Source: a virus
Lineage: Duplodnaviria > Heunggongvirae > Uroviricota > Caudoviricetes
Length of the DNA stretch: 37,501 bases
Reading direction: 5' to 3' (one strand)
Virus record (IMG/VR): IMGVR_UViG_2526164690_000052
Below the pieces are notes generated by a model. It searched no databases, was not told the DNA's origin, and was given only the letters and a program-made list of their open reading frames with translations. The translations under genes and the position numbers were made by a program. This document shows positions 1,008-36,124 of the stretch, in pieces. The number at the start of each line of letters is the position of its first letter. Position 1 is the stretch's first letter.

Positions 1008-1355
1008 TTACTTATCACATAAATCAAATGCAGCCTTAGTGACATCCCCCAGACTCTTTTTTAACCCTGGGGCGGCATCATTATCTAGCCAAAATGGATT
1101 ATTGTTATCTAACGGTAACGCACCAAATGTTTTACCTTTTATTCGAGCTAAACCTGTAAGCGCATATAACTTATTATCGTCAAAATTCATCACATAAGGA
1201 TTACCATCAAGACACTGTAATTGAACCTCATCAGTATTAAATGGCCATACCCCATTGAAACTCTCACGTTCAATAGTTTTAAAAGGCATTGCGACGGCGG
1301 AAAAAGAAAACATAGATAAAAAAGTAACTAATAGTTGAACCTTTTTTACTTTCAT
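1008..1355 (-). CDS. Secreted/periplasmic protein of unknown function (cargo in lysogenic operon)
   Basis: 115-aa ORF; N-terminal signal peptide MKVKK + hydrophobic core + AVA cleavage motif; two Cys; GAGGT Shine-Dalgarno 5 nt upstream of ATG; AT-rich; 5 nt from int start. Confidence 0.6.
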   Translation of the reverse strand: MKVKKVQLLVTFLSMFSFSAVAMPFKTIERESFNGVWPFNTDEVQLQCLDGNPYVMNFDDNKLYALTGLARIKGKTFGALPLDNNNPFWLDNDAAPGLKKSLGDVTKAAFDLCDK

Positions 1356-1384: not shown

Positions 1385-2035
1385 TTACAAATTAAAAAAC
1401 ACCCTAGAAATGGCACCGCCTACCAAAACCCCTACGCAGATAAAGAATATTATTTCTTTTGGATAAAGTCGGATTAATTCTGAAGCACGAAGTCGAACTT
1501 CTGGTAAGGCCGAACTCTCTGTGTGACTTGATGCCGATTGTTGCTCTAACCACGACAATGCAGACTGTAACTGAGAACGAGTAAGATCGTTTAAACGTCC
1601 TGTACCGAAATTGATATGGCAATACCGCAGAAGTTTTTGTCGAAGTCCACAGTCTTCACTGTTACGTAGTAATAAACTTACAAGAGTCTTACAGGCATCA
1701 TGATCTTTACATCGCTCAAGCATTGCATGCAGAAAACTCTCCGCTGTTTTATATTGATTTACTGTCATATCATCAATACCAGCTACACCAATCTCCGCAT
1801 GTACTTTTTGCCAAATAATAAACGCTTCAGTATTGCTAGCTTCTGCAATAGCAGCAACCAAGCTATTTAGCTCCTTACGCTGAGCCTTAAGCAAAGGGCG
1901 ATCGTCATCATCATTATTCGAAGGGATTGCGATATTGACGGTATGAGAACCATCATATCGCTCTATCTGAATATTCTTTTCGTGAAAATCACGCCCAGCA
2001 ACGCGATTGTTTGAACCGTTTGAGTTGACGGCCAT
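1385..2035 (-). CDS. Membrane-anchored protein of unknown function (C-terminal hydrophobic segment)
   Basis: 216-aa ORF; GGAGGT RBS upstream of ATG; C-terminal hydrophobic stretch IIFFICVGVLVGGAI; N-terminal motif SNNRVAGRDFHE matches the C-terminus of the upstream repressor. Confidence 0.6.
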   Translation of the reverse strand: MAVNSNGSNNRVAGRDFHEKNIQIERYDGSHTVNIAIPSNNDDDDRPLLKAQRKELNSLVAAIAEASNTEAFIIWQKVHAEIGVAGIDDMTVNQYKTAESFLHAMLERCKDHDACKTLVSLLLRNSEDCGLRQKLLRYCHINFGTGRLNDLTRSQLQSALSWLEQQSASSHTESSALPEVRLRASELIRLYPKEIIFFICVGVLVGGAISRVFFNL

Positions 2036-2050
2036 GTCACCTCCCTACTA

Positions 2051-2455
2051 TCACCTACCCTTAGTTTCGTTATAGTCACGACCAGCGATACGGTTATTAC
2101 CACCAGAAATATTTAACTCACGTCCTGATGGCTGAGTTTCCTTTTCACTGATCGCACCTTTTAAAGCCCCGATCACCGCGTTTTTCACATCTAACGAAGC
2201 TGCTCGAAAGCGAGTAATCAACTCCTGCTCATCATCGTTATAAGTTTCAGGTGAGTGAATTCCCAACACAACATACTGAACATCAAGGCCAAAACGAGAC
2301 AGCGCTGCCAAATACGCAGCATCAGGAAAGCTATCTCCTTTCTCATATCTAAGCTGAGTTAGCTTTTTGACTCCACCAATGTCGCTCATGGCAACTTGAC
2401 TAAGTCCCAATCTTTCCCTTTCCTCACGCAACCGCTGACCAATATCATTTTTCAT
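2051..2455 (-). CDS. XRE-family helix-turn-helix transcriptional repressor (immunity repressor, functional analogue of P2 C / 186 CI)
   Basis: 134-aa ORF; N-terminal Cro/CI-type HTH (LREERERLGLSQVAMSDIGGVKKLTQLRYEKG); first leftward gene at the divergent switch region, upstream of int. Confidence 0.75.
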   Translation of the reverse strand: MKNDIGQRLREERERLGLSQVAMSDIGGVKKLTQLRYEKGDSFPDAAYLAALSRFGLDVQYVVLGIHSPETYNDDEQELITRFRAASLDVKNAVIGALKGAISEKETQPSGRELNISGGNNRIAGRDYNETKGR

Positions 2456-2530
2456 ACAAAAACCTTGACAGATATCTTTTTTGATACCAAAATGATTTCA
2501 CGAGCTATTAGATGATCACAATATACCACT
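2456..2530. promoter_or_regulatory. Divergent early/lysogenic switch region (promoter-operator)
   Basis: 75-bp AT-rich gap between divergent repressor and early genes; TTGACA at 2465-2470 with 17-bp spacer to CAAAAT on + strand; palindromes AGATATCT (2470-2477) and TGATCA (2513-2518). Confidence 0.5.
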
Positions 2531-3982: not shown

Positions 3983-4068
3983 CCGCATAAATAAAACCCC
4001 AGCTTAAATAAAAAAATGTGAACACAATCTGCATTCGCAGAGGTATTCACACACACCAAGGAGGCGTA

Positions 4069-4272
4069 ATGGCAATTAAGCATTTTCCTGTCGTTCGTTT
4101 CACCTCCAGAGGACGTGAATACGAAGTCGACGAACGTCTGATTACCACAATCGACAAACACCGCTCAGAAAAGGATGCACACCACATCTATCTCACTGAC
4201 GGCACTTACTTTTGCGCCACTAATGTGGCGCGGGTGAATCTTATCCGACAGGTACAGGATCCACGCAAATGA
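4069..4272 (+). CDS. Hypothetical early protein
   Basis: ORF-track frame 4018..4272; start placed at ATG 4069 which follows AAGGAGG (4058-4064). Confidence 0.4.
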   Translation: MAIKHFPVVRFTSRGREYEVDERLITTIDKHRSEKDAHHIYLTDGTYFCATNVARVNLIRQVQDPRK

Positions 4273-4487
4273 GTAGGAGAAGAATCACTCGCAGACATCA
4301 CCGAACACACCTGAGTTCCTCAGCAACGCTAAAGGCACTTATTCAAAGCGAGATCGGTGATTTCTTCGCGGGAGTTGGCTCACCAGGCGAACCAGAAACA
4401 CCAGAAGCGATGCAGCGTGAGCTCATGATACGCATAGATAACACTTTTGATTTCTTCTACAGCATGCACGGAATTAAACAGAAATGA
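4269..4487 (+). CDS. Hypothetical early protein
   Basis: 72-aa ORF, start overlaps previous stop. Confidence 0.4.
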   Translation: MSRRRITRRHHRTHLSSSATLKALIQSEIGDFFAGVGSPGEPETPEAMQRELMIRIDNTFDFFYSMHGIKQK

Positions 4488-4595
4488 ACCTCAAGCCAGC
4501 AATAACTACTCGTAGAACGTCAATTCCTGTAACCGACCGCTTCTGAGTTTTTTGGCAGGAAGCCTTCGCACATCTGTAGTAAAGAGAATTGCAGC

Positions 4596-4985
4596 ATGAT
4601 TGACGCTCATGACTTCACAAGATGGGTGCGCACACAGGACACCCGTCTGGCTCCCGTTCTTCAGGGATTATTTGATCTCTACATCCGTGGTCGTGACAAC
4701 AGAGCACGCACCACAAAACCGGAGAATGCAGACACCCTTTATTTCACAGTAGACGACTGCTACCGCGTGGACTTCACACCACACGGGCTGGCGTTGCACT
4801 GCCTGACACCACACGGCGAATCACTGCTGGCGTATTACGACTCCCCGGCCTCCATATTTGCGGCAATGCTGGCGCATCGCACTGCTGGCGGGTGTGCCTC
4901 GCTGAGTGAATACTCCGCTGAATTTAACCGCCTTTCCGCCCTCTTCTCACAGGAGTGGCAGCGCGTGACGGGATACCAGCCATGA
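4596..4985 (+). CDS. Hypothetical protein immediately upstream of replication gene A
   Basis: 129-aa ORF; stop overlaps start of A. Confidence 0.45.
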   Translation: MIDAHDFTRWVRTQDTRLAPVLQGLFDLYIRGRDNRARTTKPENADTLYFTVDDCYRVDFTPHGLALHCLTPHGESLLAYYDSPASIFAAMLAHRTAGGCASLSEYSAEFNRLSALFSQEWQRVTGYQP

Positions 4986-7822
4986 GTGCGTTTGCATGGA
5001 GCTGGAATGAACCACGGCCAGCCATTGATCCGGCCAGATTTACGGAGCGCAGGCAGGAAACTGAAACCGACCTGCAACGCGCCATCCGTTACTACCTTGA
5101 GGCAAACAAAAGGGCACAGGAAGAACAGGAAGCGAAGGAAGAAGCCTTTTTCGCACAATCCACCGTGGGTAAAAAACTCATGGCATCCCTTGAGGAAGCC
5201 GGACAGCGTGAAAAGCTGGCACAAAGCATCATCAGCAAGCGTCAGGCAACAGAACAAGACCCGGTGGCCCGTGCTTTTGCCACACTGAAGGTGCTTCCCG
5301 TTTATCTGCGTGAACCTCTGAGCCGCCACCTCTCTTTTCTGCGCAAGAAGCAGGAAGCCGATCGTCAGAAAGGCAAAAAGAGCTGGCAGGCTGAACGCTA
5401 CGCGCGCGGAACCCTGCGCAAAATATTCGAACGTCTGGACCGCACCGACAGCCGCTGGCTGACACCGGGCTATCGCTCCCTTGCCGGACGCGAACGCCTG
5501 GACGATTTGCTTTACCTGCCGCAGCTCAACAAACACCAGATACAGACGCTGGCCACCATGACGGCGGCGATGTTCAGTGGCACTTTTGAAAAACTCTGCG
5601 ATGGCTTTGGCGCGACCGATGGCGAGCTGACCATGGATGTAACGCTGAAGGCGTATCAGATGCTGGCCCGCATGGCGTTACACCTGCACGCTATGCCTCC
5701 ACATTATGACGCTCTGACAACAGACAAAGACCGGAGGAATGAACCGGACACGGAGCTGCTGCCGGGCGCAATCCTTCGCCTGACCTGTGCGGAATGGTGG
5801 AAACGCAAACTGTGGCTGTTACGTTGCGAGTGGAGAGAAGAACAACTCCGCGCCGCCTGTCTGGTTTCCAGAAAAACATCACCCTATCTGAGCCAGGACG
5901 CGTTAAGCGAGTTTCGCGCACAGCGCGAGAAAACACGCGATTTCCTGAAAAGTTTCATGCTGGAAAACGAAGACGGGTTCACGATTGATCTCGAGACAGT
6001 GTATTACGCGGGAGTAAGTAACCCGATTCACCGTAAGGCAGAAATGATGGCCACCATGAAGGGGCTGGAACTTCTGGCCGAAGCCCGTGGCGACAGAGCG
6101 GTGTTTCTGACTGTCACCTGCCCGTCAAAATACCACGCCACAACAGAGAACGGTCATCCGAATCCCAAATGGAACGGGGCCACCATGCGCGACTCCAGCG
6201 ATTACCTGGTTAACACGTTTTTTGCGGCGGTCCGCAAGAAACTGAACCGCGACGGCCTGCGCTGGTATGGCATCCGCACGGTGGAGCCTCACCATGACGG
6301 CACCGTGCACTGGCATATGATGGTCTTTGCTCATCCGGAAGAAATCGACACCATTGTGTCCCACACCCGCGATATTGCCATTCAGGAAGACCGCCACGAG
6401 CTGGGCAATGATATTACTCCGCGCTTTAAGGTGGAGTATGTCGACGGCTCAAAAGGCACGCCAACCAGCTACATCGCCACCTACATCGGAAAGAACCTGG
6501 ACAGCCGCGCCGTGGATGGCATCGACCCGAAAACGGGCAAGCCACGCGTTGACCACGAAACCGGAAAATCAATGGCCGAGAGCGTGGAACGCGCCATCGG
6601 CTGGGCACGCCTTCACCGGGTCCGCCAGTTCCAGTTCTTTGGCATCCCCTCCCGTCAGGTATGGCGTGAACTCCGCCGCCTTGCCAGCCAGATGGCACGC
6701 AACCCGGAAGGCCCACAACGGCTGAAGGATGATGCAATGGATGCGGTACTCGCTGCCGCTGATGCCGGGTGTTTTGCCACCTACATTGAGAAACAGGGCG
6801 GCGTACTTGTTCCACGCAAAGACTACCTGATTCGCACCGCCTACGACCTCGCAGATGAGCTGAACGATTACGGCGAACAGAGCGTACAGATTTACGGGAT
6901 CTGGTCACCACTCATCGGGGAATCCTCCCGTGTGTGCACGCACTCGGATAACTGGAAGCTGGTAAGACGTAAACCGGAAGCGGAAGACAGCACCCGCGAA
7001 AATGGTTTTGACCTTCAGGGCGGCCCTGCCGCCACTTGGACTCGTGGCAATAACTGTCCCCGTGTACAGGAAACGGACAACAACGGGACAGAACAGCCGG
7101 AAGAAAGGCCAGCACCGTGGCCGCAGCTTCCTGACGGCGTTGACGTGAATGAATGGATGCGCTCACTGAAACGGCACGAACGCCGGGCGCTGATGCGTTC
7201 GCTGCGTGACAAACAGGCAAAAAACAGCAGTGATGAAATGCAGAACTGGACACAGAGCCGCAAACAGCCACGGCCTTTGCCTGATAACCACGAGTTACTC
7301 GCTAAAGAATGGCGGGAGTCTGCTGAATCTCTCGGCCTGCATATCGGTGAACAGCAGATGCAGCACCTGTTACGGGGCGGCAGTCTGTACGTTGACGGCA
7401 GCATCATTGCACCGCAGGGATTTGAAATTGTACGCAAACCAGATACCCGCCCGGACAGCCGAATCACGCAACTCTGGCAGCGCCTGAGCCGTAATCACGG
7501 CGTAAGCAGCACGGAGATCCGCCATAACCCGGTCGCCAGCTATCTGGAACAGCTGGGGGCATCAGACCCCGAAGCCGCCGCACACCTGGCATCCACACTT
7601 CAGCAGGACCAGAACACCATGAAAACCCCCGTTACCGTGCTTTCTGACATGCTGCGCGCCATCCGTGACGCAGTGCACGCACAGAGAATCAGTGAAACCA
7701 CTGAACGCGCCCACCGCAAAGCAGACCTGCTGCGGGGTAGCCTGACCAGTGGAAACAAAAAACAGACAGAAACGGGACTCACAAATCCCGTAAATGAGCA
7801 AAAAACGTGCCGCGATATATGA
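4982..7822 (+). CDS. A: Replication initiation endonuclease gpA (rolling-circle HUH nickase)
   Basis: about 946 aa; HUH-type motif TVEPHHDGTVHWHMMVF; overall resemblance to P2/186 A proteins; start uncertain (ATG 4982 or GTG 4955). Confidence 0.85.
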   Translation: MSAFAWSWNEPRPAIDPARFTERRQETETDLQRAIRYYLEANKRAQEEQEAKEEAFFAQSTVGKKLMASLEEAGQREKLAQSIISKRQATEQDPVARAFATLKVLPVYLREPLSRHLSFLRKKQEADRQKGKKSWQAERYARGTLRKIFERLDRTDSRWLTPGYRSLAGRERLDDLLYLPQLNKHQIQTLATMTAAMFSGTFEKLCDGFGATDGELTMDVTLKAYQMLARMALHLHAMPPHYDALTTDKDRRNEPDTELLPGAILRLTCAEWWKRKLWLLRCEWREEQLRAACLVSRKTSPYLSQDALSEFRAQREKTRDFLKSFMLENEDGFTIDLETVYYAGVSNPIHRKAEMMATMKGLELLAEARGDRAVFLTVTCPSKYHATTENGHPNPKWNGATMRDSSDYLVNTFFAAVRKKLNRDGLRWYGIRTVEPHHDGTVHWHMMVFAHPEEIDTIVSHTRDIAIQEDRHELGNDITPRFKVEYVDGSKGTPTSYIATYIGKNLDSRAVDGIDPKTGKPRVDHETGKSMAESVERAIGWARLHRVRQFQFFGIPSRQVWRELRRLASQMARNPEGPQRLKDDAMDAVLAAADAGCFATYIEKQGGVLVPRKDYLIRTAYDLADELNDYGEQSVQIYGIWSPLIGESSRVCTHSDNWKLVRRKPEAEDSTRENGFDLQGGPAATWTRGNNCPRVQETDNNGTEQPEERPAPWPQLPDGVDVNEWMRSLKRHERRALMRSLRDKQAKNSSDEMQNWTQSRKQPRPLPDNHELLAKEWRESAESLGLHIGEQQMQHLLRGGSLYVDGSIIAPQGFEIVRKPDTRPDSRITQLWQRLSRNHGVSSTEIRHNPVASYLEQLGASDPEAAAHLASTLQQDQNTMKTPVTVLSDMLRAIRDAVHAQRISETTERAHRKADLLRGSLTSGNKKQTETGLTNPVNEQKTCRDI

Positions 7823-7898: not shown

Positions 7899-8858
7899 AT
7901 GAAAATTTGTATCGACGACGGCTCCACCAACATCAAGCTGGCATGGACTGAGAACGGCGAACGCCGCAACGCCATCAGCCCGAACAGCTTCAAGTCGGAA
8001 TGGTCTGCGCCGTTCGGTGGCACGCAGCCCGCGAACTACATGCTTGATGGCGTGCGCTATGGTTTTGATCCGGTCAGCGATCGCTTTGTCCAGACGACCG
8101 ACACGCAATACCAGTACAGCGATGTGAATATAATTGCCATTCATCACGCGCTGGTCAAATCAGGCATCACACCACAGGAAGTGGATGTGGTTGTCACCCT
8201 GCCACTGAGCGAGTATTTCGATACAAACGCACAGCCGGACATGGCCAACATCAACCGCAAAAAAGCGAACGTCATGCGCCCGGTGGAGTACCAGAACGGC
8301 GAAGCATTCACTATCCGTAACGTACGGGTTATGCCTGAATCCATTCCGGCTGGCTTTAAGGCACTGGCTGACATGAGTCCGTTTGAATCCCTGCTGATTG
8401 TGGATTTGGGCGGAACCACTCTGGATGTGGCAAAGGTTCAGGGGCAACTGGCAGGTATCAGCCAGGTGTTTTGCGATCCACACGTGGGCGTTTCTCTGAT
8501 GGCCGATGCCGTACTGTCGGTGATGGCCACTAACGGTATGCGCACCAGTCACCACATCGCCAATACCATTATCGAACATCGCCATGATGAAGCCTGGCTG
8601 CGCCAGCACATCCACAATGACGCGCATTACGCCAGCCTGATGGCGGTTATTCGTGAAAAGGAAGAAACACTGAAACAACGCGTGATCCGCGCGCTGGCGG
8701 GTTTTTCGGGTTACGGGCGGGTGATGGTTGTCGGTGGAGGGGCGGAGATTGTGGCACCCGCTATCCGCGAAGCCTGCGGAGTTAATGCGACTTTCATCGC
8801 GGACGGGGTGCCACAGTTTGCTCTGGTTAATGGGCTGTACGCAATGGACAAGGAGTAA
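7899..8858 (+). CDS. parM: ParM/StbA-like actin-family segregation ATPase
   Basis: 319 aa; N-terminus MKICIDDGSTNIKLAW...ISPNSFKSEW and internal blocks (YSDVNIIAIHHAL, VMPESIPAG, DLGGTTLD, VGGGAE) match plasmid R1 ParM as recalled. Confidence 0.8.
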   Translation: MKICIDDGSTNIKLAWTENGERRNAISPNSFKSEWSAPFGGTQPANYMLDGVRYGFDPVSDRFVQTTDTQYQYSDVNIIAIHHALVKSGITPQEVDVVVTLPLSEYFDTNAQPDMANINRKKANVMRPVEYQNGEAFTIRNVRVMPESIPAGFKALADMSPFESLLIVDLGGTTLDVAKVQGQLAGISQVFCDPHVGVSLMADAVLSVMATNGMRTSHHIANTIIEHRHDEAWLRQHIHNDAHYASLMAVIREKEETLKQRVIRALAGFSGYGRVMVVGGGAEIVAPAIREACGVNATFIADGVPQFALVNGLYAMDKE

Positions 8859-9237: not shown

Positions 9238-9828
9238 ATGAGCGAAATCAACTATCAGGCATTACGTGAACGTTATTCACCTGTGCCAGTACCGAAATGC
9301 CCTATTTGCGGCGAGGAAATGTCAATTCAGCGAATATCTGGAGCACAGGTTGTTTATGCCTGCTCCGGTTATGGTGATGATGGAGATTTCAAAATTGGCC
9401 AAACTCTTGCCGACGAACATTATGAAAAATCACGCGTAACAGTGTTGGATGTCGGGGATCCTGAAGTATTGGCGCTACTTGATTGGCTGGAAACCAAAGA
9501 CAACCGAATCGCTGAACTGGAAAAAATCGCCACTGACTATGCACTTAAATTCCAGAAAGCACAGGACGCATTAAAGTATGCCGCTTTGCTGCATAGCAGG
9601 ACGGCGCAACAAACAAATAATTTTGCAGTATCGCTTCCGGACATAAGCGAATATTTCATTAATGACGTATTTCAGCCCTTGCGATACGAGCGGGATGTTG
9701 AAAGAGCCATCATAAAGGCTGGCGGAAAAGCATTGTGGCAGGAGAAACACGAGGACAGAACGCATCAGTCCTGCGATGTAAATCGTGGATGGTTTAGCCC
9801 ACTGACGACAGATAAAAATAACACCTGA
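9238..9828 (+). CDS. Hypothetical moron protein with N-terminal Cys-rich (zinc-ribbon-like) region
   Basis: 196 aa; KCPICGEEM...YACSGYG near N-terminus; AGGAG RBS; occupies the tin/old-equivalent variable locus between A and cos. Confidence 0.5.
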   Translation: MSEINYQALRERYSPVPVPKCPICGEEMSIQRISGAQVVYACSGYGDDGDFKIGQTLADEHYEKSRVTVLDVGDPEVLALLDWLETKDNRIAELEKIATDYALKFQKAQDALKYAALLHSRTAQQTNNFAVSLPDISEYFINDVFQPLRYERDVERAIIKAGGKALWQEKHEDRTHQSCDVNRGWFSPLTTDKNNT

Positions 9829-34143: not shown

Positions 34144-34795
34144 GTGGGAAACAATAAAGTGAAATTAGGAAGAAATGATAAGTGCTGGTGTAATTCAGGA
34201 CTTAAGTATAAAAAGTGCCATCTTGGTCGAGATCGTGAAACTCCGGTATCCAAAGCCGAGGCACTGAAATTTTCAAAGTCTCTCTCGCAGAGAAAGGCAT
34301 GTTATGCGCCAGCATCCATGCACGAAGATTGTGATAAACGCATCGTTCAGGCGCATACGATATCTAAGAGCAGTAGCCTTAAGGCGATCGCCGACTCCAG
34401 CAATCACGTCATGGGGGTGATAATGAACTTAGCAAGCCTGATGAGAAACAACGGAAAATGGCTTCCCGAGAAGATCGGTATCAATCAGGCATCCACTTTT
34501 ACAGGATTTTGTGCAGTTCATGACAGAATCTTATTTTCATGCCTAGAGAACGAAAAATTTACAGGCACGGACGAGCAGTGCTTTGCCTTAATGTTTCGTT
34601 CATTGTCTAAAGAAATTTATGCCAAAGAAGGGGGAGTGCTATCTTCTGATTTTGCTAAAAATGCCGATAAAGGAAAGCTACAAGTTGAACAGTATTATAT
34701 TCAGAAATTAATCGACCAGCACCAAAGTGGCTTAAATGCAGCAATAATTGAATTAAATAATCTTAAAACTAGCCTCGACCGCATCCTACTTAGCA
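34144..34795 (+). pseudogene. N-terminal part of an IS10-disrupted cargo gene (SEC-C zinc-motif protein)
   Basis: ORF with N-terminal CWCNSGLKYKKCH (SEC-C-type metal-binding motif); reading frame runs into IS10 end at 34796 and stops 11 codons inside the IS; AT-rich. Confidence 0.6.
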
Positions 34796-36124
34796 CTGAG
34801 AGATCCCCTCATAATTTCCCCAAAGCGTAACCATGTGTGAATAAATTTTGAGCTAGTAGGGTTGCAGCCACGAGTAAGTCTTCCCTTGTTATTGTGTAGC
34901 CAGAATGCCGCAAAACTTCCATGCCTAAGCGAACTGTTGAGAGTACGTTTCGATTTCTGACTGTGTTAGCCTGGAAGTGCTTGTCCCAACCTTGTTTCTG
35001 AGCATGAACGCCCGCAAGCCAACATGTTAGTTGAAGCATCAGGGCGATTAGCAGCATGATATCAAAACGCTCTGAGCTGCTCGTTCGGCTATGGCGTAGG
35101 CCTAGTCCGTAGGCAGGACTTTTCAAGTCTCGGAAGGTTTCTTCAATCTGCATTCGCTTCGAATAGATATTAACAAGTTGTTTGGGTGTTCGAATTTCAA
35201 CAGGTAAGTTAGTTGCTAGAACCCATGGCTCCTTTGCCGACGCTGAGTAGATTTTAGGTGACGGGTGGTGACAATGAGTCCGTGTCGAGCGCTGATTTTT
35301 TCGGCCTTTAGAGCGAGATTTATACAATAGAATTTGGCATGAGATTGGATTGCTTTTAGTCAGCCTCTTATAGCCTAAAGTCTTTGAGTGACTAGATGAC
35401 ATATCATGTAAGTTGCTGATAGGTTTCCAGTTTTCCGCTCCTAGGTCTGCATATTGTACTTTTCCTCTTACTCGACTTAACCAGTACCAACCCAGCTTCT
35501 CAACGGATTTATACCATGGCACTTTAAAGCCAGCATCACTGACAATGAGCGGTGTGGTGTTACTCGGTAGAATGCTCGCAAGGTCGGCTAGAAATTGGTC
35601 ATGAGCTTTCTTTGAACATTGCTCTGAAAGCGGGAACGCTTTCTCATAAAGAGTAACAGAACGACCGTGTAGTGCGACTGAAGCTCGCAATACCATAAGT
35701 CGTTTTTGCTCACGAATATCAGACCAGTCAACAAGTACAATGGGCATCGTATTGCCCGAACAGATAAAGCTAGCATGCCAACGGTATACAGCGAGTCGCT
35801 CTTTGTGGAGGTGACGATTACCTAACAATCGGTCGATTCGTTTGATGTTATGTTTTGTTCTCGCTTTGGTTGGCAGGTTACGGCCAAGTTCGGTAAGAGT
35901 GAGAGTTTTACAGTCAAGTAATGCGTGGCAAGCCAACGTTAAGCTGTTGAGTCGTTTTAAGTGTAATTCGGGGCAGAATTGGTAAAGAGAGTCGTGTAAA
36001 ATATCGAGTTCGCACATCTTGTTGTCTGATTATTGATTTTTCGCGAAACCATTTGATCATATGACAAGATGTGTATCCACCTTAACTTAATGATTTTTAC
36101 CAAAATCATTAGGGGATTCATCAG
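34796..36124 (-). mobile_element. IS10 insertion sequence (IS4 family), complete 1329 bp, flanked by 9-bp target duplication TACTTAGCA
   Basis: terminal sequences CTGAGAGATCCCCTCATAATTTCCCC (34796 onward) and ...AATCATTAGGGGATTCATCAG (ending 36124) match IS10 inside and outside ends as recalled; direct repeats at 34787-34795 and 36125-36133 fit the IS10 target consensus. Confidence 0.9.
34809..36017 (-). CDS. IS10 transposase
   Basis: 402 aa beginning MCELDILHDSLYQFCPELHLKRLNSLTLACHALLDCKTLTLTELGRNLPTKARTKHNIKRIDRLLGNRHLHKE, recognised as Tn10/IS10 transposase. Confidence 0.9.
   Translation of the reverse strand: MCELDILHDSLYQFCPELHLKRLNSLTLACHALLDCKTLTLTELGRNLPTKARTKHNIKRIDRLLGNRHLHKERLAVYRWHASFICSGNTMPIVLVDWSDIREQKRLMVLRASVALHGRSVTLYEKAFPLSEQCSKKAHDQFLADLASILPSNTTPLIVSDAGFKVPWYKSVEKLGWYWLSRVRGKVQYADLGAENWKPISNLHDMSSSHSKTLGYKRLTKSNPISCQILLYKSRSKGRKNQRSTRTHCHHPSPKIYSASAKEPWVLATNLPVEIRTPKQLVNIYSKRMQIEETFRDLKSPAYGLGLRHSRTSSSERFDIMLLIALMLQLTCWLAGVHAQKQGWDKHFQANTVRNRNVLSTVRLGMEVLRHSGYTITREDLLVAATLLAQNLFTHGYALGKL

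Follow-up and report, generated by a model that had tools for sequence, protein, structure and literature searches.

A terminal peptide common to a putative prophage repressor and the adjacent membrane protein, and its co-variation among temperate phages

The shared peptide and the two proteins that carry it

The window analysed here, namely the whole stretch of 37,501 nucleotides in the IMG/VR virus record IMGVR_UViG_2526164690_000052, is a P2-like prophage (Peduoviridae, genus Xuanwuvirus) integrated beside yecA in Escherichia coli. Two adjacent genes on its minus strand encode a putative XRE-type helix-turn-helix (HTH) immunity repressor of 134 residues (2051..2455), assigned from its open reading frame (ORF), HTH matches, position and AlphaFold2 (AF2) model, and a 216-residue membrane protein (1385..2035; referred to as the partner). 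The C-terminus of the repressor (...LNISGGNNRIAGRDYNETKGR, also written ...ELNISGGNNRIAGRDYNETKGR) and the N-terminus of the partner (MAVNSNGSNNRVAGRDFHE; longer form, MAVNSNGSNNRVAGRDFHEKN) share a motif with a 12-residue core: GNNRIAGRDYNE (2066..2101) and SNNRVAGRDFHE (1979..2014), respectively, with 9 of the 12 residues and 24 of the 36 bases being identical. With its flanks, the copy in the repressor covered residues 114-130 (LNISGGNNRIAGRDYNE; 2066..2116, minus strand) and was followed by a short tail, TKGR, and that in the partner covered residues 3-19 (VNSNGSNNRVAGRDFHE; 1979..2029, minus strand). A conserved extension behind the motif was found in the partner only (residues 20-39, KNIQIERYDGSHTVNIAIPS; 1919..1978, minus strand; alignment A2).

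The motif segment was the best local alignment between the two full-length proteins: 17 residues, 10 of them identical, and a BLOSUM62 score of 62. Composition-preserving shuffles scored 29.2 ± 4.7, and one in 5000 attained 62. When the six frames of the window were scanned with a relaxed motif pattern, matches occurred at these two places only, and a class-specific pattern applied to 0.97 Mb of related loci found the two expected sites per locus and no others. This absence of extra matches ruled out a common low-complexity peptide in the sampled DNA.

Both ORFs lie in one frame and are separated by three stop codons and a ribosome-binding site; on the minus strand, the junction (2036..2053) reads TGA (2051..2053), TAG, TAG, GGAGG (2040..2044), a 4-nt spacer and ATG. 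Fusion of the ORFs by read-through or frameshifting was rejected from these three consecutive stops and from the variation in frame and spacing (-4 to +62 nt) among loci: 4-nt overlaps of start and stop codons in many of them, which suggest coupled translation, and gaps of 2 to 62 nt elsewhere. Since the frame relation varies, a fused product is not the point of the arrangement. An initial annotation of this DNA had described the sharing of the motif with 24 of 36 identical nucleotides, as well as the common frame interrupted by TGA TAG TAG and a ribosome-binding site, and both descriptions agreed with our direct reading and alignment; its proviso that the peptide might be a common low-complexity string did not apply in the sampled DNA (the window and the 0.97 Mb).

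The HTH matches of the 134-residue protein were weak: HTH_31 (E = 8e-5), HTH_19 and HTH_3 fell under the Pfam cut-offs, and the RstR and DicA models of NCBIfam were also under their cut-offs. The gene precedes that of the integrase and points away from a Cox-like early operon, and this position, together with the XRE-type matches, identifies it as a putative prophage repressor. A Pfam scan (E up to 0.1) returned HTH_31, HTH_19, HTH_3 and MqsA_antitoxin only, with no match to Peptidase_S24, the domain expected for self-cleavage of the LexA/lambda CI type. In the AF2 model, an HTH domain (residues 1-65) and two helices (residues 74-105) preceded a tail (residues 106-134) with a predicted local distance difference test (pLDDT) value of < 50. 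In motif-bearing loci, the repressor motif was almost always followed by a basic end (KK, KKK, RRRKTK, RKRKR or GKKKPKG), and the partner copy had no such flank; this end may act as a charged "gatekeeper" against self-assembly.

The partner, recognized from its ORF, the NCBIfam Flk model, the PF27202 assignments of its homologues and its AF2 model, consisted of the N-terminal motif, a Flk_N-like, all-helical and probably cytoplasmic domain (residues 45-172; 1520..1903, minus strand) and a C-terminal hydrophobic anchor (residues 187-215; 1391..1477, minus strand). It matched the Flk model with E = 9e-16 (residues 37-166 on model positions 20-149), whereas its score of 58.1 bits was far below the cut-off of 353 for full-length members of the Flk family (PRK10715). 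PF27202 (Flk_N) was precomputed on 118 of the 120 listed homologues, and domain and anchor together placed the partner in the Flk_N family by way of these homologues. In the AF2 model, residues 1-41 had pLDDT < 50 and the helical domain had pLDDT of ~90, and beyond a short linker the chain ended with a hydrophobic helix; a low-confidence helix covered the motif at residues 8-17, and confidence was low over the extension. The anchor was supported by a Kyte-Doolittle segment (residues 187-205), an AF2 helix (residues 192-215) and analogy with Flk, and the protein was predicted to be tail-anchored with a cytoplasmic N-terminus. Neither an NTPase nor a repeat domain was found in it by Pfam, NCBIfam or AF2. 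For E. coli Flk, experiments have established a tail anchor, with most of the protein being cytoplasmic (PMC6794478), and the motif of the partner should therefore be cytoplasmic, like the repressor. Judged from its sequence, the partner is a tail-anchored membrane protein of the Flk_N family, and a relative of Flk rather than an Flk. Flk (RflH), which regulates the flagellar export switch in Salmonella and E. coli, has the homologous Flk_N helical domain and the same tail-anchored layout, but genuine Flk proteins are longer (330-410 residues), have a P/G-rich segment in place of the motif at their N-terminus and are chromosomally encoded.

A profile search of 1.84 billion representative proteins yielded just 141 Flk_N clusters, in which the phage-type members (~180-330 residues) all carried a G/N/Q-rich N-terminal segment of 20-60 residues, varied in class, before Flk_N. 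Three proteins with long N-terminal extensions, considered as candidates for an HTH-Flk_N fusion, were actually Rha, AntA and Bro-N regulators with weak matches. A search of 5.8 billion proteins with residues 1-45 of the partner yielded just seven hits, all of them truncated forms of this protein and thus uninformative on other architectures.

Conservation and co-variation of the motif pair

The N-terminal motif was present in all 120 listed partner homologues (from Escherichia, Klebsiella, Serratia, Erwinia, Citrobacter, Enterobacter and others), which began with NS.G..NR.[AS]GRD[FY].E, followed by ..IQI..[FY]DG.HT[IV]NIAIPS. Across 61 aligned partner homologues, G7, N10, R11, D16 and E19 were invariant, as were I24, D28, T32, N34 and P38 of the extension in alignment A2. 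All full-length close homologues of the repressor ended with INVSG.GNR[IV]AGRD[YF][NH]E.KK; more distant ones had different G/N/Q-rich tails. In IMG/VR, each of the 80 loci encoding the partner had, 9-18 nt upstream, an HTH repressor ending with NR.AGRD[YF].E, and look-ups starting from distant Flk_N proteins revealed an upstream XRE repressor with a matching tail in three of three cases. Since at least three HTH domain families (< 50% identity) in the IMG/VR loci bore one common C-terminal helix and tail beside the same partner, the DNA-binding module has been swapped without separating the tail from the partner. The contexts included P2-like prophages of Enterobacterales, Mu-like and BcepMu-like transposable prophages (with rve or Mu transposase, and DUF3102) and one locus beside a Rha-family gene, and the module was also found in prophages of Klebsiella, Serratia, Yersinia, Pseudomonas, Burkholderia, Bordetella and others. 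Judged by these sequences, temperate phages carry the arrangement as a general module.

In other lineages, the partner was not Flk-like, yet was still a membrane protein with the motif at its (predicted) cytoplasmic N-terminus. The motif was followed by two membrane-spanning segments in one type, by a "TGIWCP" domain and two spans in another, and by a zinc ribbon and one span in a further type. A longer type (L012, L013, L020 and L046; ~4400..5400; 260-329 residues) comprised the motif, a Flk_N-like start, a long coiled coil and one span, and ended with a small periplasmic segment containing two conserved cysteines (C.[FY][DA]G[KE][PT][YF]..G[ST]......C), which could be an outward-facing sensor domain. 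Despite these varied architectures, a transmembrane segment was predicted behind the cytoplasmic N-terminal motif in nearly all partners. In one locus (L024, Aggregatibacter kilianii; 4001..4402), the repressor tail contained two tandem motif copies (MKIEGNHNQQ ... MEIKGDNNVQ) and the partner one (MKMKITGNGNTQ).

The similarity of the two copies was not reflected in their codons. In 32 loci, 296 aligned positions had the same (degenerate) amino acid, and the same codon was used at 140 of them: a fraction of 0.47, compared with 0.46 expected from the codon usage of those genes. Since synonymous sites between the copies are thus fully randomised, the match is maintained at the peptide level. This randomisation ruled out gene conversion and a duplication of recent date, and since no DNA-level similarity is left between the copies, they were also rejected as a recombination joint. 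Codon differences among homologues were 1112 synonymous versus 390 non-synonymous in the ten motif codons of the repressor, and 1926 versus 1657 in codons 8-19 of the partner. The proposal in the initial annotation that selection acted on the peptide, and that the similarity was not due to a recent duplication, therefore found support in both codon usage (47% against 46%) and the synonymous excess.

Eighty loci were fetched by a repressor profile (one genome per species) and the downstream gene was read in each. In ~30 of them, the repressor tail resembled the first 10-30 residues of the downstream protein, and the N-termini from other loci much less; these loci span Gilliamella, Pseudomonas, Aeromonas, Pectobacterium, Bordetella, Burkholderia, Jeongeupia, Thiothrix, Aggregatibacter and several uncultured Proteobacteria, and represent P2-like and Mu-like prophages of Gamma- and Betaproteobacteria. 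Examples of tail and N-terminus, respectively, are GQQINGPISGGVAGRDFV and KQEINGDVEGGIAGRDIV (L015), KQVFKGSVSGVAGRDVVK and KQTFKGPVGDVAGNDVVK (L019), TVDYGNAQIGQASAGDIVN and TVSFGGAQIDQAAAGDINN (L020), and QIFNGDISGQFAGNQIIN and QEFNGTAQGQFSSRDIIN (L014). Eighteen non-redundant loci were then picked without using the motif, on the basis of the conserved repressor helix and of a downstream ORF whose start lay between -60 and +40 nt. The cognate partner ranked first in 11 of these 18 loci and among the top three in 15, and the summed cognate score was 799, versus 465 ± 39 after permutation (z = 8.6); none of 100000 permutations attained 799. As negative controls, ~40 Pseudomonas repressor paralogues upstream of a response-regulator gene, with neither tail nor partner, gave background scores. 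These paralogues (L033-L081, many loci) are chromosomal and lie 57-190 nt upstream of a conserved response-regulator gene, the product of which starts with LIRVLVVDDHDLV...; their C-terminus is different and helical-looking, with no motif or membrane partner.

A natural swap was found in L167 and L168, whose partners were 53% identical outside the motif and had near-identical anchors, but belonged to different motif classes. The partner N-termini were DIGVEGDQNRVAGRDYLE and QQFNGAVDQVAAGDIKN, and the corresponding repressor ends IVVSGSGNRTAGENYHE and QQFNGPVGGVTSGDVVN, respectively; alignment scores were 43 and 52 for the cognate pairs, versus 15 and 17 for the crossed ones. Such a switch of class in both genes together would be required by direct pairing, and would not be by a factor common to the host. 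Motif classes also differed inside one genus, as between L006 and L007 of Gilliamella and among the Pseudomonas loci.

Possible function of the pair and alternative explanations

We consider mutual binding of the two copies fairly probable, with the membrane partner thereby regulating how much active repressor is available. The shared peptide would be a homotypic pairing motif, present in the unstructured repressor tail and in the cytoplasmic N-terminus of the partner, and two copies would bind directly, strand against strand, as a β-zipper or an amyloid-like stack. In this way, the membrane protein would capture the repressor, or nucleate its assembly, at the membrane, and capture would set the amount of active repressor reaching the operator. 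The partner would then be a membrane-anchored sensor or anti-repressor for the lysogeny switch of a repressor without a RecA-type self-cleavage domain. What we infer is the physical binding itself, an effect that inactivates the repressor instead of stabilising it, and a signal. In the AF2 monomers, both copies lay in segments with pLDDT < 50 beside confidently folded domains, and such a placement of (predicted) disordered copies is typical of a short linear pairing motif. A templated amyloid-like assembly, as opposed to simple strand pairing, is a possible but somewhat doubtful form of the contact. Equally tentative is a functional-amyloid (prion-like) switch, in which the motif of the triggered membrane sensor would serve as a cross-β nucleus templating the repressor tails, so that the repressor leaves the operator and the prophage is induced.

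Several observations weigh against direct pairing of this kind. The AF2 monomer models showed no β structure at either copy, which was unstructured or weakly helical. Both genes are co-expressed in the lysogenic operon, where an anti-repressor that acted constitutively would defeat its own purpose, so that the model must assume a signal. Within the NR.AGRD class, no fine-scale matching was seen by eye, with the I/V/A and Y/F positions differing freely between partners, and co-variation is therefore established between classes, not residue by residue. Furthermore, the repressors of L018, L030 and L032 had motif-like tails and no clear partner, the partner of L060 had no transmembrane or hydrophobic segment, and no HTH-Flk_N fusion was found among the 141 family representatives.

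In anatomy, the closest known systems are the amyloid signalling motif pairs: fungal HET-S/NWD2, bacterial BASS1-10 in Bell/NLR pairs and BASS11 in E. coli Bab/Agp. As in these systems, the upstream product ends with a motif, outside the folded domains, that recurs at the N-terminus of the product encoded next to it; the length (~17-25 residues), the identity between copies (~50-70%), the many classes and the pair-specific matching are also similar, and pseudo-repeats occur in some proteins here (L024, L046 and L060). The two copies facing one in L024 recall HET-s, in which two pseudo-repeats face the single repeat of its NLR. Compared with the rest of the same proteins, the motif was enriched in N (3.1-fold), G (2.4-fold), Q (1.8-fold) and V (1.7-fold), with I at 1.1-fold, and was depleted in L (0.11-fold), P (0.5-fold) and K (0.55-fold). 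Bacterial BASS motifs have an excess of Q, N, G, V and I and a deficit of K, P and L, and are ~25 residues long (bioRxiv 10.1101/2020.01.06.895854). The composition here corresponds to this description, and the aligned length, 9-31 and mostly 15-21 residues, is somewhat under 25. Bab/Agp (BASS11) is a prophage-borne E. coli defence system that acts by amyloid templating (bioRxiv 10.1101/2024.11.07.622273). On the other hand, the carrier of the C-terminal motif here is an XRE HTH repressor, and not a membrane-targeting cell-death or immune effector (Bell, HeLo, TIR or CHAT), and that of the N-terminal motif is a small membrane protein, and not an NLR/STAND (NB-ARC/NACHT) or TPR sensor (Agp). 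The repressor motif is also trailed by a short basic tail, and the likeness is drawn from composition and gene arrangement.

The nearest functional analogy is SinR/SinI (and SlrR/SlrA) of Bacillus subtilis, in which the product of an adjacent gene copies the C-terminal interaction segment of an XRE repressor, forms a heteromer with it and antagonises it. Here too, an XRE HTH repressor is adjacent to a gene bearing a copy of its C-terminal segment. The shared element of SinR/SinI, however, is a helical hook domain, and its antagonist is small and soluble, in contrast to a G/N/Q-rich, probably strand-forming peptide on a membrane-anchored protein; Pfam (E up to 0.1) gave no SinI match for the repressor, and the shared segment was not predicted to be helical in this protein. 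Small phage proteins that drive an XRE-type or CI-type repressor into assemblies and off its operator without proteolysis are exemplified by RstC acting on RstR (CTX-phi/RS1) and Qtip acting on cI (vibriophage VP882). RstC and Qtip are soluble, have no motif in common with the repressor and are transcribed only on induction, whereas the candidate partner here is membrane-anchored, motif-sharing and co-transcribed.

The initial annotation had proposed a shared epitope for a protease, adaptor or partner that couples the membrane protein to the repressor. The coupling is supported by homologues of both proteins: the motif was present in essentially all of them, always co-occurred and co-varied between lineages. 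Its other part, a third party (a host protease, adaptor, chaperone or other phage protein) that reads both copies and gives them a shared fate without mutual contact, appears to be quite unlikely. Terminal, disordered and conserved peptides are typical degrons and both copies are at exposed termini, and within the NR.AGRD class the copies match each other no closer than the class consensus does, which such a reader would produce. Nevertheless, the classes differ inside one genus, even between partners with 53% identical bodies, with both genes always switching together, and no third gene was conserved across the P2-like, Mu-like and other contexts. The converse relation, in which the tail is the repressor's own higher-order oligomerisation element and the repressor controls the membrane protein, for example by restraining a membrane-active exclusion or abortive-infection effector in the manner of other cargo genes that are co-transcribed with repressors, is unlikely, although it would agree with the conversion-type genes in the lysogenic operon (DUF2511 here, lipoproteins in Gilliamella), with the diversity of the membrane partners, as is frequent for effectors, and with the two tandem motif copies in the L024 tail. 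The partners have at most one or two spans and contain no domain recognisable as a pore or an enzyme, what is known of Flk_N proteins makes them regulators and not effectors, and the retention of tail and partner through exchange of the DNA-binding domain fits a regulatory input to the repressor.

A functionless relic, either left over from gene fission or terminal duplication or serving as a recombination joint for module exchange, is highly improbable. The common frame of the two ORFs in the window and the mosaic nature of phage immunity regions would be in line with such an origin, but copies with randomised synonymous sites are not recombination substrates and are not recent, and both are under purifying selection. 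Moreover, the match persists across Gamma- and Betaproteobacteria with the class turning over in step, and the frame relation is variable among loci, with no fused form among the 141 representatives.

For many temperate phages, among them most of the P2-like group, we are aware of no mechanism that switches off a repressor lacking a RecA-cleavable domain. Direct pairing would provide a concrete, testable candidate, in which a matched terminal peptide links a membrane protein to the repressor. The recurrent matched pairing points to a physical link from the membrane to the lysogeny switch that is not described in the searchable literature; full-text searches on amyloid signalling with HTH, on prophage repressors, antirepressors and membranes, and on P2-like regulatory regions yielded no description of the motif pair. 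The sharing of one motif by the products of neighbouring genes, a principle associated until now with immune sensors and cell-death effectors, would thereby be extended to gene regulation. If the amyloid switch were true, this would be the first amyloid signalling pair with a transcription factor, and not a cell-death effector, as output, and an SOS-independent induction route common to P2-like and Mu-like phages. The natural range of orthogonal motif classes could also serve as pairing tags.

Neighbouring genes and other features of the prophage

The 1.8 kb around the motif pair was 100% identical to the O111:H11 strain 88.0502 and was found in 525 of 5426 complete E. coli genomes (~10%), many of which were O26, O103 and O111 strains; identity to Escherichia phage 520873 was 98%. 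In this phage (NC_049344, L002; 1039..3065), the integrase, DUF2511 and membrane-protein genes are each in two or three frame-shifted pieces, and the membrane gene has no annotation; the breakage would be due to sequencing errors or a decaying prophage.

The next gene of the operon (1008..1355, minus strand) encodes a DUF2511 protein (Pfam DUF2511), whose membership in the module is uncertain; it was not conserved in non-P2 loci having the motif pair. The last gene of this leftward operon encodes a phage integrase (1..1002, minus strand), as assigned from its ORF and annotation, and a scan of the minus strand from 900 to 2800 detected no terminator-like site. Divergent from the repressor, the plus strand carries a ribbon-helix-helix-like ORF, a Cox-like gene and then replication genes. 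In the switch region between them (2444..2496), a rightward promoter-like site (TTGACA at 2465, with the second hexamer ending at 2493) was located within an imperfect 19-nt inverted repeat (74% complementary) from consensus matches only, and this repeat is a candidate operator for the repressor.

Directly after a replication gene, a full-length ParM/StbA actin-like segregation protein is encoded (7899..8858, plus strand; StbA_N, E = 4e-82; ParM C-terminal domain, E = 1e-68), which is unusual cargo for an integrating P2-like prophage, and an Ead/Ea22-like protein is encoded at 9238..9828 (plus strand). Among the late genes, a 625-residue protein (18082..19959, plus strand) contains DUF1737, a SASA sialate O-acetylesterase domain and DUF6645, and resembles NanS-p-type esterases of prophages from Shiga toxin-producing E. 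coli. At the right end of the window, an ORF with a SEC-C motif (YecA-like; 34144..34830) is overlapped by an insertion sequence transposase (DDE_Tnp_1; 34809..36017), and this end is probably the attR side of the insertion next to yecA.

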